Shown: positions 2,187 through 8,362, counted from the stretch's first letter. The stretch is DNA of 64,000 nt from Candidatus Bathyarchaeia archaeon (GCA_050013255.1 JBEKFP010000001.1:256001-320000), one strand, 5' to 3'. The notes: generated by a model from the sequence alone, not told the origin. Numbers and translations are program-made.

Positions 2187-3386
2187 GTGTATCCGACGAG
2201 CCCAATTGCTCGGCCTAGTTTGTTCAGGGGGGAGATCTTACTCCTGATAATAGTGGACGGGCTTTTCGGGTTCGCGGTTGGCTTCAGCTCTCCCTCCGTC
2301 GCGCCGTTAATCGTCGCCATCGGGGTTAGCATAACATTCGTGGGTCAAGCACAAACCATCGGAGGCCTGGGCGCCACATTTCTTCGCTTGCCCATTGGTG
2401 TCTTGATTGATCGAATTGGGCGAAAACCCTTCATTCTCATAGGGGGACTCGTGACGCTGGTTGGTTTCTTTTCGTACTCTTTCGCCACATACTGGGTTCT
2501 GTTGGGCGCGGGCATCGTGCTAGTGAGTTTGGACCAGGCTATTCGCGGGACAGCTTCGTACGCGGCGCTCGGCCACGCAACCACAACGCAGGGACTTGGA
2601 AAGATTTTCAGCATTGACCTTGGCGTAACTGAAACGGCCGCCACACTGGCACCACTCCTTGGGGGTTTCTTAGCGACCGCGATGGGTCTCCCAAGACAAA
2701 TAATTTTCACAACTTCCGCCGCTCTCGTTGCAACTGCTCTCGGGATCGTGGTTCTGGGCTACAAACCAGAGCGAATCCAGCGAACCGAAGCCGCAGCCGG
2801 GTCTTGGTGGGGGTTCCTACGCCCCGACAAAAGCCTCATACCTTTGCTGGTGGTAGTGGCGCTCGATTCAGTCGCATGGAGAATCAGCTTCCCCTTCTGG
2901 GCGTTGTATATTTTCAAAGAGATGAAATCTACCCAAGAACAGTTAGGGATAGCATTGGCAATCTCCGCTGGAATTCCAGCGCTGACGGGTTTCACGTTGG
3001 GTTCCAAGCTCGACAAGCTCGGCGGGAGGCCTTTTCTGGCGGCTAGTGAATGGTCCGCCATTGGTTGTTTTCTGCCGCTTTTGTTGGGTTGGAGACCTGA
3101 GTTCGCGTACATATCCGCCGTATTCGCTGGTTTCGTCTACAGCTTATGGATGCCCGCCCTAAACGCTCACATTGTTCTACATTACGGGCGAGAGAGATAC
3201 GGTCAGACGTTTGGGATACTGGCGCTCGTTGCCGGCATGGCATCAGCCGTGTCCCCAATCCTGGGTGGGTGGATGTGGGACAACATATCACCACAATCCC
3301 CCTTCATACTCAACCTAGTCCTAGCCATCATAATCGGTTTCATAATCTGGTTCAAAATCAAAGAACCAACTCCAGCGGTGACCTAG
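2187..3386 (+). CDS. MFS transporter
   Basis: GVLIDRIGRKP motif A; about 12 hydrophobic segments. Confidence 0.9.
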   Translation: MYPTSPIARPSLFRGEILLLIIVDGLFGFAVGFSSPSVAPLIVAIGVSITFVGQAQTIGGLGATFLRLPIGVLIDRIGRKPFILIGGLVTLVGFFSYSFATYWVLLGAGIVLVSLDQAIRGTASYAALGHATTTQGLGKIFSIDLGVTETAATLAPLLGGFLATAMGLPRQIIFTTSAALVATALGIVVLGYKPERIQRTEAAAGSWWGFLRPDKSLIPLLVVVALDSVAWRISFPFWALYIFKEMKSTQEQLGIALAISAGIPALTGFTLGSKLDKLGGRPFLAASEWSAIGCFLPLLLGWRPEFAYISAVFAGFVYSLWMPALNAHIVLHYGRERYGQTFGILALVAGMASAVSPILGGWMWDNISPQSPFILNLVLAIIIGFIIWFKIKEPTPAVT

Positions 3387-3482
3387 GAAGCGAGCACGTG
3401 CGGTCAGACACGTGTGGTACCCTTGGTGCGCGCCCCCCAAAATAATGAACGAACGATCGTCTGTGGATTGTTGTTAGTTGTT

Positions 3483-3539
3483 GTGTGTGGGTCAGCTGGT
3501 GCGGGCAAGGGAATTTGAATTGTCGTCCTTCGTCGTTAG
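3483..3539 (-). repeat. tRNA-3'-end-like repeat, copy 3
   Basis: Minus strand: CTAACGACGA...TTCAAATTCCCTTGCCCGCACCAGCTGACCCACACAC. Confidence 0.75.
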
Positions 3540-3599
3540 CAAAAGCGTGTGTGAGCCTAGTCGTTTCGGGCCATGTAGACGAATGGATCGTACCACGAT

Positions 3600-5042
3600 T
3601 TAAGAAGCGGCCGGGAGGCCGGCGAGTGTTCGGGCTAGGTCTTTCTTTCTTTCCAGGTCAGCTAGTTGTTTTATCGTCATTTGCGCGGCTGCAGGGGAGC
3701 CGCCGCCGTGCATGCAGAGCGCGCCTAGTCTCCCCGGGCCGGCAACCATGCTCTCGATGAGCCTAGCCACCCTCAACCTCTTTTCCGCCGTAACTCCATG
3801 CGAGCCACGATAGTACTTTTCCACCAGCGGGCCTATCTTCGGGTTTTTCAAATCGAGTTCGGATGGCATGGAGGATATCATTCCGCCGCCGATGTCTTCA
3901 GCTATCTTCTGAATCTCGTACGGGAGCCTTGTCACACTGATCTTGGTGACGTTGGCTAGGAGGGGGTCGGGGAACCATACGCCAGATGGCGTTGGCTGAC
4001 CCTCGTAAGCAGCACCTAAGGCTTGTGAGTATAAGGCCTCGGATAGGTACGTCATTTCAGCCAACCGGTCGGAGAGTTGCCTAGACAACCCATTGTATTC
4101 AGCCAGAAGTGCGCCAGCCCCAGTTAACACGTCACCACAACCCGCCAAACAACCGCCCAACACCATTCTATGGAGCAAAACGAACTTGGTCACGACATCC
4201 ACAGCGAAGTCGCACTCCCCGTTCATGAAAACGCGTTCTTTGGGAACGAAGACATCATCGAAAACCACGAGCGATTCGGATGAGCCGAAGTTAACGTTCC
4301 CCTTATCGAACCCTCCCTCCAATTTCCTTTCCCCGCCCGGCTGCATGTCAACAACTTGCATCACACCCTCCGCGTTCATTGGCACAGCGAAGGCGACGGC
4401 GTGCTCCTTCTCAGCTTCAGCGAACCCCGTGCCTGGTTGAACGATGATCTCGTGCGAGCCTATTGCGCCGCCAATCATACTCTTGGCGCCCCGCACTACG
4501 ATTCCTTTCTTATTCTCGTCCACTACTCTGAGGTAAACATCCTTGTCAGGTTGGTGTTTCGGTTTCAGGGACCGGTTGCCTTTCGGGTCTGTCAACGCGC
4601 CTGCGCAGGTTAGGTCTTTGCCTTGCACCATCTCGGCGTATCGTTTCAGCCGCTTGTGGTAGTCCGTGCCGAGTTGGGCGTCCATTTCATATGTTGAGTG
4701 CCAAAGCGCGTTGAGGGCGTCCCAACCACAGCAACGGCTCGCTGTACAGACTCCCGTCCATTGACAAACAAGTCGCGCCGCCTTAACGCGGTTTACCAGA
4801 TCCTCCCTGGACCTATGGATTGAGCAGTATGCGCTGATTTTCGACCCGGCTTCACCTGTTCTCGTTAGGAGGCTGTCGTACCTGGGCTGTTTGGAAAGGT
4901 TGTAGATTTCACCAATCCCTTCTAACGCCAGGCGTGTGAACGTGTTTTTTGTTACGTCTTGAATGCGGTCGCCGCGCATGTAGGCCTCAGACTTTAGCCG
5001 CTTCATGCTCTGGATGTATTGTTGTTTAGACTTTAGGACCAT
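3600..5042 (-). CDS. 4-hydroxybutyryl-CoA dehydratase / HpaB-family flavoprotein (AbfD-like, divergent)
   Basis: TGVCTASRCCGWD, GALTDPKGNRS, GIVVRGAK, HR..GGC and MHGGGSP motifs typical of the AbfD family. Confidence 0.8.
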   Translation of the reverse strand: MVLKSKQQYIQSMKRLKSEAYMRGDRIQDVTKNTFTRLALEGIGEIYNLSKQPRYDSLLTRTGEAGSKISAYCSIHRSREDLVNRVKAARLVCQWTGVCTASRCCGWDALNALWHSTYEMDAQLGTDYHKRLKRYAEMVQGKDLTCAGALTDPKGNRSLKPKHQPDKDVYLRVVDENKKGIVVRGAKSMIGGAIGSHEIIVQPGTGFAEAEKEHAVAFAVPMNAEGVMQVVDMQPGGERKLEGGFDKGNVNFGSSESLVVFDDVFVPKERVFMNGECDFAVDVVTKFVLLHRMVLGGCLAGCGDVLTGAGALLAEYNGLSRQLSDRLAEMTYLSEALYSQALGAAYEGQPTPSGVWFPDPLLANVTKISVTRLPYEIQKIAEDIGGGMISSMPSELDLKNPKIGPLVEKYYRGSHGVTAEKRLRVARLIESMVAGPGRLGALCMHGGGSPAAAQMTIKQLADLERKKDLARTLAGLPAAS

Positions 5043-5051
5043 GTAGAACCC

Positions 5052-6215
5052 TCAGAGGAGTTCGTTGGAAATCACGAGTCGTTGAATCTCTGATGTGCCC
5101 TCGTAGATTTCTGTGATCTTCGCGTCCCGGTAGTATCTTTCGAGGGGTAGGTCTGTCATGTAGCCGTATCCTCCGTGGATTTGTAATGCCTTTCGAGCGG
5201 CTTCGACTGCGGTTGATGCGGCGAAGAGCTTAGCCATGCTAGCCTCCTTCGTGTGTTTTCTACCTTGGTCTGTAAGGGTAGCAGCATGGTACGTGAGCAG
5301 TCTCGCGGCTTCAATTTCGGTCGCCATGTCCGCGATCATCCAACGAATCGCTTGTTGGTCGCTGATGGGTTTCCCGAATTGAACCCTCGTCCTTGCATGC
5401 TCGATCGCAGCGTCCAGGGACGCTTGGGCTATGCCTACGGCTTGTGCTGCAATGCTAATCCGCCCACAATCCAGCGTGTCCATTGCAATCTTGAATCCCT
5501 CCCCTGGCCGACCAAGCATGTTCCTTGCCGGAACTCGCACGTTATCGAAAATTACTTCAGAAACCATCGATGAACGTATTCCCATCTTATCAAATATCTT
5601 CCCAATCTTGACGCCAGGCATGTTCCGGTCAACGATGAAACATGATATGCCTCGGTGCGCGAGTGATTTGTCTGTCATCGCGAAGACGAGGTAGGTGCTC
5701 GCCATCGGAGCGTTCACGATGAAGTACTTGCGGCCACGAATCACGTACTCATCGCCGCTCAGCGTCGCCTTCGACTCCATCGACGCAACATCGCTTCCGG
5801 CTCCAGGTTCAGTTAAGCAGAATGACCCGAACTTCGAACCTTGGGCCAATGGTGTCAAGTAGAGCATCTTTTGCGGCTCGGTTCCGTACGATAGCAGTGG
5901 TTGGCTGACAAGTGATACGTGCACAGCTAAGGTAACCCCGAGGGCAGCGGAACCGCGGGAGATTTCCTCTACGGCAAGAATATAGCTCAGTACGTCTTGG
6001 CCGCCTCCTCCATACTTTCTTGGGATCGGCAGGCCAATCAGGCCGGCCTTAGCCATTGCGCGCCAAGTTTCTGTCGGGAATCTCTTGCTCTTGTCCCAAC
6101 CATCAGCCTTCGGTAAGACGAATTTCTCCGCGAAGCTACGGGCTCTTCGCAGCACATCTTCCTGGCGCTTACTTAATGCAGTTCTGTCAAGTTGTCGTCT
6201 GCTAATCAGTTTCAC
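5052..6215 (-). CDS. Acyl-CoA dehydrogenase (short/branched-chain type)
   Basis: FCLTEPGAGSD, QIHGGYGY, RDAKITEIYEGTSEIQR. Confidence 0.95.
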   Translation of the reverse strand: MKLISRRQLDRTALSKRQEDVLRRARSFAEKFVLPKADGWDKSKRFPTETWRAMAKAGLIGLPIPRKYGGGGQDVLSYILAVEEISRGSAALGVTLAVHVSLVSQPLLSYGTEPQKMLYLTPLAQGSKFGSFCLTEPGAGSDVASMESKATLSGDEYVIRGRKYFIVNAPMASTYLVFAMTDKSLAHRGISCFIVDRNMPGVKIGKIFDKMGIRSSMVSEVIFDNVRVPARNMLGRPGEGFKIAMDTLDCGRISIAAQAVGIAQASLDAAIEHARTRVQFGKPISDQQAIRWMIADMATEIEAARLLTYHAATLTDQGRKHTKEASMAKLFAASTAVEAARKALQIHGGYGYMTDLPLERYYRDAKITEIYEGTSEIQRLVISNELL

Positions 6216-6261
6216 TCGCCTGTTTGTTTTAATTGTGCATTCCAGCCATCCAGTGTTCAGT

Positions 6262-6636
6262 CATCAGTTGATGAAGCCGAGTCAACGGCGGGATGTGGGC
6301 TTTCGCCCGAATTAGCCGACTGGGCCGATGTTGGGTATCTGGTTGCTTTTGACCGAGCGTGAAACCCTGACTGTGCGAATGGTCTAGCTGGTTTCGTGAA
6401 TGCGAAACGAGAGCCCTGAGGTTCGGGGCCGTCGCGTCTGCAGGTGAAGCGATGGTATGGGAATCCGAGACTGACGGTAATCCCTCAGTCGATGCAGATG
6501 AGTCAAGGAGACGAAGACTTGACAGAACCCTTAATGCAAACTCCATACGAACCCCCATCAGGGGTAGCGTAAGTACCGGCAAATATCTGTTGGATACGAA
6601 CAATACTTACTATACCGATGGCTTCACCCGTTGATG
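6262..6636 (+). ncRNA. Candidate large structured non-coding RNA (unidentified)
   Basis: 17-bp imperfect terminal helix plus at least 7 internal helices, several with G-U pairs on the + strand; TATA-like TTTTAATT at 6227-6234; no credible ORF. Confidence 0.5.
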
Positions 6637-6730
6637 CCTAAAATACTCTCTGAGAACTCACCCGAGCCGCTTGAGCAAAGGGTAACTATTCAGGCAAAGA
6701 AGCATCTTCGTTGCGCAGGGTCAGTGAATA

Positions 6731-7039
6731 TTGAACGCGTACGTGAAAGTCTGCGAAACAACCGACGTCCCATCCGGAACCATGCACCCAGTTGACGTAG
6801 GCCAGAATAAGCTGATGATCGTCAACGTAGATGGCTTTCTGTACGCATTGAACAGAATATGCTCCCATGAAACCGCAGACCTATCGACCGGTTTCCTCGT
6901 GGGTTCCGTGGTAACTTGCCCGCTACACCTGTCGAGGTTCAATGTGAAAACTGGCGAAGTAGAGAACCTTCCAGCCACAGTGCCCCTTGCCACATATGCT
7001 TTGAAGATTGAAGGGACAAGTGTATACGTCCGAGTGTAG
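6731..7039 (+). CDS. Rieske-type [2Fe-2S] ferredoxin
   Basis: CSH...CPLH Rieske ligands, 102 aa. Confidence 0.92.
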   Translation: MNAYVKVCETTDVPSGTMHPVDVGQNKLMIVNVDGFLYALNRICSHETADLSTGFLVGSVVTCPLHLSRFNVKTGEVENLPATVPLATYALKIEGTSVYVRV

Positions 7040-7117
7040 GCTCAGCAGAGAGAATGAGTTGGAGAACTTATATCACGTCATACACGTTACTTCAACCAAT
7101 GTTCGCCGGTCTAGGTA

Positions 7118-8362
7118 ATGGTCGAAAAAGTTACAACGATAAACGTTTCTAAGCTCCGAGAAGACTTTCCGGTTCTAAAACGCCAAGTCAACGGAAAACC
7201 ACTCATCTACTTCGATAACGCCGCCACATCACAAAAACCCGAATCCGTCATAGAAACCACAGACCGGTACTACAGAGAGTACAATGCGAACATTCATCGC
7301 GGAATCCACAAACTAGCTGAGGAAGCAACACTCGCGCATGAAGAAGCAAGAGAAAAAATCGCCAAATTCATCAACGCAAAGCACACCGAAGAAATAATTT
7401 TCACACGAAACGCAACTGAAGCGATAAACCTAGTCGCCTACACCTGGGGCAGGGCGAACATTGGGAAAGGGGACAAGATTGTCTTAACAATCATGGAGCA
7501 TCACAGCAACATAGTTCCGTGGCAGTTGCTTGCACAAGAAAAGGGCGCCAACGTTGAGTACGTAAAGATTGATAATGGAGGGTTGCTCCGCCTGGATGAA
7601 GTTCACGAGTTGATTGATGAGAGAACGAAGATCGTGTGCGTAACTCAAGCCTCTAACGTGCTTGGAACGATTAACCCAGTTAAGGAGATTGGCAAGGTCG
7701 CCCACCGCTACGGTGCAATGTTCTTAGTTGATGCAGCCCAGTCCGTTCCGCACATGCGTGTTGACGTTAGGGATACTGACAGCGACTTCTTCGCATTCTC
7801 AGGCCACAAGATGTTGGGCCCCACCGGAATTGGAGTCCTCCACGGGAAGAGCGAACACCTCAGGAGAATGCCGCCATTCTTGGGTGGTGGAGAAATGATA
7901 AGGGAAGTTCACACTACCGGAGCCTCGTGGAAGGACATCCCATACAAGTACGAGGCTGGGACACCAAACATAGTCGGCGCCATCGGCCTCGGGACGGCAG
8001 TGGATTATCTCAGCAAGATCGGAATGGAAAACGTCCATGAGCATGAGAGAGAAATCTCCAAGTACGCAATTGGAAGAATGAGCGAAGTAAAGGACCTCAC
8101 CCTATATGGGCCCAGAGACATTGCACAAAGGGTCGGCGTACTCTCTTTCAATTTGGGAGACATCCATGCCCACGACCTCGCTTCAATCTTGGATGAAGAA
8201 GGCATCGCCATAAGGTCAGGGCACCATTGCGCCCAACCCTTGATGGAATTCCTAAACGTCCCCGCCATGTCGAGAGCAAGCTTTTACATTTACAACACGA
8301 AAGAGGAAGTTGACGTATTCATCAACGCCCTTGAGAAGGCCAGGAAGCTATTCGCGCGATGA
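7118..8362 (+). CDS. sufS: Cysteine desulfurase SufS
   Basis: YFDNAATSQKP, MEHHSNIVPWQ, FSGHKMLGPTG, RSGHHCAQP. Confidence 0.96.
   Translation: MVEKVTTINVSKLREDFPVLKRQVNGKPLIYFDNAATSQKPESVIETTDRYYREYNANIHRGIHKLAEEATLAHEEAREKIAKFINAKHTEEIIFTRNATEAINLVAYTWGRANIGKGDKIVLTIMEHHSNIVPWQLLAQEKGANVEYVKIDNGGLLRLDEVHELIDERTKIVCVTQASNVLGTINPVKEIGKVAHRYGAMFLVDAAQSVPHMRVDVRDTDSDFFAFSGHKMLGPTGIGVLHGKSEHLRRMPPFLGGGEMIREVHTTGASWKDIPYKYEAGTPNIVGAIGLGTAVDYLSKIGMENVHEHEREISKYAIGRMSEVKDLTLYGPRDIAQRVGVLSFNLGDIHAHDLASILDEEGIAIRSGHHCAQPLMEFLNVPAMSRASFYIYNTKEEVDVFINALEKARKLFAR

Follow-up and report, generated by a model that had tools for sequence, protein, structure and literature searches.

Elements of the IS200/IS605 and IS607 types are known carriers of TnpB guide RNAs, as are, in outline, some DDE transposons. 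The IS6 family has its own hallmarks, which are GG(T/C)(T/A)CTGT ends and 8-bp duplications. The omega RNA (reRNA) of TnpB has been described for IS200/IS605-type elements such as ISDra2 (Karvelis et al. 2021, PMC8612924, and Altae-Tran et al. 2021, PMC8929163, as cited in PMC10691335), and its guide is the host DNA just past the right end of the element (PMC10691335; PMC10055086). Gene-less IS605-type (PATE-like) elements encode omega RNAs that are used in trans (Meers et al. 2023, PMC10055086). TnpB branches associated with DDE transposases (DDE-1 to DDE-6) have also been distinguished, and the IS630-linked DDE-6 has symmetrical ends (Altae-Tran et al. 2023, PMC10691335). The main text of that paper names IS630, not IS6, and ORF-less guide-only derivatives do not appear in it. 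Our literature search turned up no paper in which TnpB and the IS6 family are connected.

We analyzed a window of 64,000 nucleotides from a Candidatus Bathyarchaeia archaeon (GCA_050013255.1 JBEKFP010000001.1:256001-320000). Positions given without a contig name are counted from its first letter. In this window, an acyl-CoA dehydrogenase (ACAD) ORF on the minus strand (5052-6215) and a Rieske gene on the plus strand (6731-7039, assigned by Pfam) are separated by 515 bp. The first-pass annotation had described this interval as gene-free and had proposed that it encodes a novel large noncoding RNA of ~375 nt, a ribozyme, or a conformational switch. We found instead that the sequence is multicopy and mobile and that its RNA shares homology with tnpB 3' ends. 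The interval is made up of part of an ORF-less IS6-type miniature element (MITE) of 350 bp on the plus strand (6180-6529), the severed start of the ACAD gene (6530-6546), and ~170 bp of true intergenic DNA, and it is not simply gene-free. A minus-strand ORF of 124 aa (6229-6603) was considered as a possible gene and rejected. It had no Pfam match and arises where the frame of the former ACAD start continues into the element.

The left terminal inverted repeat of the MITE is AGTTCTGTCAAGTTGTCGTC (6180-6199), and the right one is GACGAAGACTTGACAGAACC (6510-6529). When the left end is compared with the reverse complement of the right end, 17 of 20 bases are equal. The right repeat also forms an arm of the last hairpin and the 3' end of the RNA scaffold described below. 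On either side of the element is an exact 8-bp direct repeat, CTTAATGC, the target-site duplication (6172-6179 and 6530-6537). A search of the same genome with the gap as query returned five full and several partial copies of 6259-6529, with 74 to 89% identity. When copies were aligned together with their flanks, the similarity broke off at ...ACAGAACC (6529) in every one. To the left of 6260, it continued for ~80 nt more, up to a conserved end, (A/G)GTTCTGT.... Four further ORF-less copies in this genome each have an 8-bp duplication of their own, and the flanks of sister copies are unrelated to one another. Of the 104 other genomes searched in the order, 17 had MITE copies as well, mainly in the same family, and most of these copies likewise had inverted repeats at their ends and their own 8-bp duplication. 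A search of the assembly for SSU rRNA gave no match. DNA of the window was found in peat and wetland metagenomes as well, and the runs listed for this stretch included no RNA run. In DNA contigs from two such runs, the depth at 6415-6496 was 10 to 70 times that of the flanks, so the community has many copies of the element's core.

The insertion site itself could be reconstructed. In-silico excision of 6180-6537 gives an ACAD start that reads MEFALSKRQEDV..., with its ATG at 6546 on the minus strand. The severed start (6538-6546, minus strand) is ATG GAG TTT, which encodes the opening three residues of MEFALSK..., and the relatives read MEFTLS... at the start of their ACAD. The element of the window is inserted in ACAD codons 4 to 6 and severs the gene behind codon 4. 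A GTG (6215) within the left end of the element now opens the ACAD ORF, and its first 12 codons (6180-6215) are element derived, their 12 residues replacing the first four of the protein. In four sister species that do not have the element, the ACAD gene aligns up to 6178, and the next aligned block (6530-6615) overlaps it by 7 nt, so there is a single copy of the target in those species. In DNA contigs from two peat/wetland metagenome runs, a joint from 6171 to 6530 skips 358 nt (350 + 8), with 9 letters that fit either side. The contig with this joint shares ~92% identity with the window, and the empty site thus persists in a wild relative. The mobility of the element and its boundaries at 6180 and 6529 are demonstrated by its inverted repeats, its duplication, its sister copies, and these empty sites. 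The first-pass annotation had itself allowed that homologues might reveal a MITE, and the inverted ends, the duplications, and the absence at the orthologous site do so.

These boundaries decide which of the proposed RNA pairings can stand. From 6530 onward, the DNA is the ancestral ACAD start followed by a conserved leader, which is kept in relatives without the element. This DNA is ancestral and the flanks of sister copies are unrelated, and pairings with it fall outside the element. Several helices of the first-pass annotation are lost for this reason. The terminal helix 6262-6278/6620-6636 has its 3' arm outside the element, 6455-6460/6543-6548 has a partner beyond 6529, and the hairpin 6569-6575/6604-6610 and the alternative partner for 6443-6450 (6621-6628) are both outside. 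A free-standing novel RNA, ribozyme, or switch of ~375 nt (6262-6636) proper to this locus is, in our estimation, highly improbable. It would account for the lack of an Rfam match, for a minimum free energy (MFE) z-score of -3.15, and for an imperfect complementarity of 17 nt between 6262-6278 and 6620-6636. However, the homologues contradict it. The conserved unit stops at 6529 in all copies, and its inverted ends, its duplications, and an empty site mark it as mobile. Furthermore, 6530-6636 is ACAD start and leader in element-free relatives, and the minus strand scores equally well (z of -3.13), so the z-score alone says nothing about the strand. The Rfam result itself agreed with the first-pass annotation, which had matched no consensus motif of RNase P, SRP, group I/II introns, or known riboswitches, although the lack of a family counts as negative evidence only. 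There was no match at an E value of ≤10 in positions 5500-7500 except a chance U6 match (E = 6.3) outside the element, no family in the whole window, and none at an E value of ≤1 in four sister copies.

The ends of the MITE led to larger elements in the same genome. Terminal inverted repeats of ~20 bp and of the GGTTCTGT type are common to the MITE, a tnpB element, and a 3,139-bp transposase element. The last of these (contig C1:182371-185509) has the same ends, the duplication CGCATCAG, and a gene for a 416-aa DDE transposase with an N-terminal zinc-finger region. This transposase matched PF13610 (DDE_Tnp_IS240) above the cut-off, and its best NCBIfam match was the IS6 family, at 114.8 bits and so below the cut-off of 125. 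A second transposase that matched PF13610 above the cut-off is at C2:560244-560660. Like the IS6 family (IS26, IS257, and IS240) and archaeal MITEs, these elements have GG(T/C)(T/A)CTGT ends and an 8-bp duplication, and the genome has a transposase of the DDE_Tnp_IS240 type. Unlike in the IS6 family, the transposase is longer (and just under the NCBIfam cut-off for IS6), and the cargo is TnpB with its omega RNA or the RNA alone. The 3,139-bp element also has four or five more small ORFs without Pfam matches, and the bases to the left of its duplication are TC, not T and a purine.

The tnpB element is 1,279 bp long (C2:62149-63427), is flanked by the duplication CAGGATCT, and has a 404-aa TnpB as its sole gene. 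In relatives, six tnpB elements have terminal inverted repeats and their own 8-bp duplications. Altogether, the genome of the window has two apparently intact TnpB genes inside such ends (C2:62206-63420 and C1:854101-855252). Both proteins pass PF07282 and NCBIfam NF040570 (RNA-guided endonuclease TnpB), and their closest solved relatives are Cas12f and TnpB. Both also have D/E/D motifs (IDRN, MERL/MEQL, and DRDVNAARNI) and two CxxC pairs, to which catalytic roles are assigned by motif. We also considered and discarded the reading of the MITE as a PATE of the IS200/IS605 type. IS605-type carriers have asymmetric hairpin ends and make no target duplication, whereas the window element has inverted ends and 8-bp duplications, and a search of its whole genome for a Y1 TnpA of the IS605 type (PF01797) found no match.

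The RNA of the MITE can be traced to tnpB. Over its last ~135 nt, the repeat coincides with the 3' ends of the two tnpB ORFs of ~400 aa in the same genome, and an nhmmer profile of the ORF-less copies matched the 3' ends of nine intact tnpB genes (these two and seven in relatives). In tblastn searches, the C terminus of TnpB (residues ~324 to 404) was detectable in the ORF-less copies. By these comparisons, the RNA is homologous to tnpB 3' ends. Of the two TnpB-linked scaffolds in the genome, that of C2:62206 is the nearer, but with only ~81% identity over 95 nt. For the 5' 128 nt of the RNA, tblastn and motif comparison gave weak homology to tnpB codons, and local DNA alignment of 6260-6402 with the two tnpB elements of the genome was no better than with shuffled sequences. 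Motif comparison suggests that the whole 270 nt (6260-6529) are what remains of the final ~90 codons of tnpB, starting at the zinc ribbon, together with the right end of the element, and the 5' domain probably derives from the zinc-ribbon codons.

The left 80 nt of the element correspond to the inverted repeat and a short tnpB leader. Within them is an A/T-rich, TATA-like box, TTTTAATT (6229-6236, plus strand), a putative promoter that is 24 to 31 nt before the first conserved base of the RNA (6260). The first-pass annotation had also pointed to a sequence ~28 nt upstream. Sister copies have an A/T-rich box in the same position, and the tnpB element at C1:854101 has one 23 to 31 nt before the tnpB ATG. 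From its sequence and position, the box fits an archaeal TATA box with a leaderless start.

To define the fold, we aligned 19 full-length ORF-less copies with MAFFT (alignment A2; mean column identity of 70%), derived a consensus with RNAalifold, dropped one spurious end pair, and scored the result by pair counting. The consensus has 69 pairs, with 95.7% of the cells in standard pairs, and compensatory changes occur in 26 pairs (104 cells). None of 500 column shuffles reached any of these measures, and sliding the pairing partners by one to three columns reduced the paired cells to 26 to 42%. When nine tnpB-linked 3' ends were added (alignment A3), the same core helices held, and 17 of 29 core pairs covaried. 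One example is the change from GUCUGCA/UGCAGAU to GCUUCCA/UGGAAGC. The strand is fixed as plus by several pairs that are G-U in almost every copy, in line with the argument from G-U pairs in the first-pass annotation. The claim of a strongly structured RNA in the gap is confirmed by the plus-strand z-score and the covariation in 19 homologues.

The consensus has two parts. The 5' domain (6260-6387, plus strand) consists of the helices 6262-6265/6270-6273, 6276-6283/6318-6325 (in which six of eight pairs have compensatory changes), 6287-6289/6315-6317, 6297-6298/6307-6308, 6328-6332/6356-6360, 6334-6336/6352-6354, and 6369-6372/6381-6384. The core, a scaffold resembling an omega RNA (6388-6529, plus strand), is the part that aligns with nine tnpB 3' ends and shares covarying helices with them, and it ends at the element boundary. 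Its helices are 6388-6397/6402-6411, 6413-6419/6423-6429, 6435-6447/6489-6500, 6449-6450/6455-6456, 6459-6462/6481-6484, 6465-6467/6475-6477, and 6502-6505/6520-6523. Four hairpins proposed from the single sequence (6297-6308, 6391-6397/6402-6408, 6413-6419/6423-6429, and 6502-6507/6518-6523) coincide with covariation-supported helices. The helix that had been seen as crossing the others, CGTCTGCA/TGCAGATG (6435-6442/6493-6500), is real and covaries, but it is not a pseudoknot. It is nested and closes the domain 6443-6492. The proposed helix 6469-6474/6485-6490 (GACTGA/TCAGTC) fared less well, as its outer 4 bp are invariant, its inner 2 bp are broken in most copies, and it does not covary. 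Its outer part, which crosses 6459-6462/6481-6484, could be a 4-bp pseudoknot.

In two copies, one in the same genome (C2:426183-426560) and one in a relative (L013, on G019 C4), the loop of helix 6413-6429 contains an additional hairpin of 26 nt (GCGCTGG-N4-CCAGCGC followed by a U-rich tail), an expansion segment that the fold tolerates. Another sister copy (C2:82803-83527) has ~390 nt that split the 5' domain from the core scaffold, and this interruption holds a reverse-strand ORF of ~100 aa.

The MITE might be a decaying relic, a dead derivative of a tnpB transposon whose fold was inherited without function and whose sole effect was to disrupt the ACAD start. Some copies do look like debris. 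The sister copy at C3:219767-220037 has lost its left end and duplication, one copy holds a 390-nt insertion, and 112-bp mini-copies retain the ends only. However, all full ORF-less copies share one deletion junction, so their compensatory changes, including those in the 5' domain, postdate the loss of tnpB. These changes are many, the pairing is maintained at 95.7% while the mean column identity is 70%, and the position of the A/T-rich box is kept. This argues that the RNA itself has been under selection since the loss of tnpB, and we regard a relic as unlikely. The RNA at 6260-6529 is most likely a TnpB guide-RNA scaffold. We further consider it probable that 6180-6529 is a gene-less internal-deletion derivative of a TnpB-carrying, IS6-ended element, which would serve as a promoter and omega-RNA unit used in trans.

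A TnpB guide RNA is expected to be accompanied by a short motif 5' of the target, as in ISDra2. The duplication in the window is directly preceded by TTA (6169-6171, plus strand), with T at -2 and a purine at -1. A T followed by A or G was found just 5' of the duplication in 22 of 22 readable elements (15 ORF-less and 7 tnpB carrying), and the mirror positions to the right of the duplication were not conserved. This one-sided motif, linked to orientation, resembles a TAM, for which TTA would be the candidate here, but it could instead reflect an insertion preference. The predicted guide segment (6530-6549, plus strand), assigned by its position and by analogy with TnpB omega RNAs, would consist of the right copy of the duplication (6530-6537) and then flanking DNA.

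In several respects, the window RNA is like the ISDra2-type omega RNA. It is structured, overlaps the tnpB 3' end, and stops at the right element boundary, and a short motif stands 5' of its putative target. Unlike ISDra2-type omega RNAs, it has no Rfam or sequence match to those described. Also, because the element makes target duplications, its predicted guide starts with the duplicated target. The window RNA is best read as a variant on the known omega-RNA theme and not as a new RNA class. Like PATE-like elements, the MITE is protein-less and keeps its ends and scaffold, and its TnpB and transposase would be supplied from elsewhere. PATE-like elements depend on a Y1 HUH transposase, whereas the likely mobilizer here is a DDE (IS6-like) enzyme that makes target duplications. 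A second difference from PATE-like elements is that the MITE has the putative tnpB promoter fused directly to the RNA. The resemblance to the DDE-linked TnpBs of PMC10691335 is that TnpB is within a symmetrical-ended DDE transposon and that many copies have no transposase.

By analogy with the described TnpB systems, we infer transcription, TnpB binding, cleavage, and homing in the following form. Because both terminal inverted repeats are kept, an IS6-like DDE transposase encoded elsewhere could move the element and make the 8-bp duplication. The element would retain the tnpB leader, with its TATA-like box, and the last ~270 nt of the tnpB unit as the omega RNA scaffold. A transcript would begin near 6260 and exit through the right end of the element. 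Since the scaffold ends where the element ends, the 3' guide would start with CTTAATGC and continue into the flank. TnpB from one of the full elements would bind this RNA in trans, and that of C2:62206-63420 is the closer match. The complex would target the unoccupied allele, TTA followed by CTTAATGC and AAACTCC... (TTA-CTTAATGCAAACTCC...), which alone combines the matching target with the right neighboring bases on its left. The occupied allele would be spared, because the match at the left junction stops after 8 to 9 nt and the right junction is preceded by AACC, not by T and a purine. Empty alleles that had been cut could then receive a copy of the element by recombination.

The movement of IS6-family elements is usually ascribed to copy-in or cointegrate routes, with the donor left intact. 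Therefore, the logic of repair after excision that applies to IS605 elements is not directly transferable, and it is harder to see what a nuclease would bring to such an element. We suggest only tentatively, leaning somewhat against it, that TnpB and its omega RNA on an IS6-like transposon, together with guide-only MITEs, might form a distributed library for the homing of elements that do not excise, in which the guide of each copy starts with its own target duplication and sends TnpB to the empty allele beside a T-purine motif. If so, RNA-guided homing would be independent of excising single-strand transposons. Occupied and empty alleles are both present in public peat metagenomes, so the predicted TAM, target, and guide can be read exactly. 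The analysis also removes a false lead to a novel ribozyme and explains an apparent gap of 515 bp, and it points to a guide scaffold on duplication-making IS6-like ends that persists as a stand-alone promoter-RNA unit.

The RNA could alternatively serve as a regulatory guide, either with TnpB or as an antisense or read-through RNA acting on its neighbors (the old ACAD leader or the Rieske-SufS operon). It heads toward the Rieske gene, 200 nt downstream, no T run was noted after 6529, and a preprint reports domesticated relatives of TnpB that work as RNA-guided repressors (bioRxiv 10.1101/2023.11.30.569447). However, the nuclease motifs are kept in both TnpBs, and the copies occupy unrelated contexts. 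We also compared the predicted guides of nine elements with the genome, and none had a second match at zero or one mismatch over 16 nt, which counts against a trans-regulatory role. We consider regulation quite improbable, less so than a locus-specific ribozyme or switch but more so than a relic, and a guide scaffold for TnpB remains our preferred reading.

Further observations concern the variety of elements and the ACAD locus. A 112-bp mini-copy (C1:685790-685901) extends scarcely beyond its two ends and is flanked by the duplication CCTAACTC. The same type is visible in peat contigs as a joint from 6221 to 6513. A 445-bp ORF-less element (C1:681796-682240) has the same GGTTCTGTTAAG ends and the duplication CAAAAGTG, and its interior is unrelated. 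At the window locus, the old ACAD start (6546) now opens a frame of 100 codons, which runs antisense through the element to a stop at 6229-6231, and 13 nt separate this stop from the GTG (6215) at which the present ACAD ORF starts. If transcribed from the old promoter, ACAD could stay expressed through termination and reinitiation.

Upstream of the ancestral ACAD start is an inverted repeat, GTAAGTAC ... GTACTTAC (6567-6611). It is near-invariant in five species, without covariation, and in three of the five a 9-nt duplication (GAACAATAC) lengthens its spacer. A protein-binding or leader element of ACAD seems a better description of it than a part of the RNA. In three sister species, the spacer between ACAD and the Rieske gene has 1.3 to 3 kb of extra DNA at the equivalent of ~6615, starting with GGTTCCGCTAACTTGTC... 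(L018 at ~2694-4233 in G014, L019 at ~2275-5265 in G004, and L020 at ~2636-3979 in G018). The extra DNA of G004 includes a partial copy of the 3' half of the scaffold, with 92% identity. This spacer seems to be a recurrent landing place for elements with such ends.
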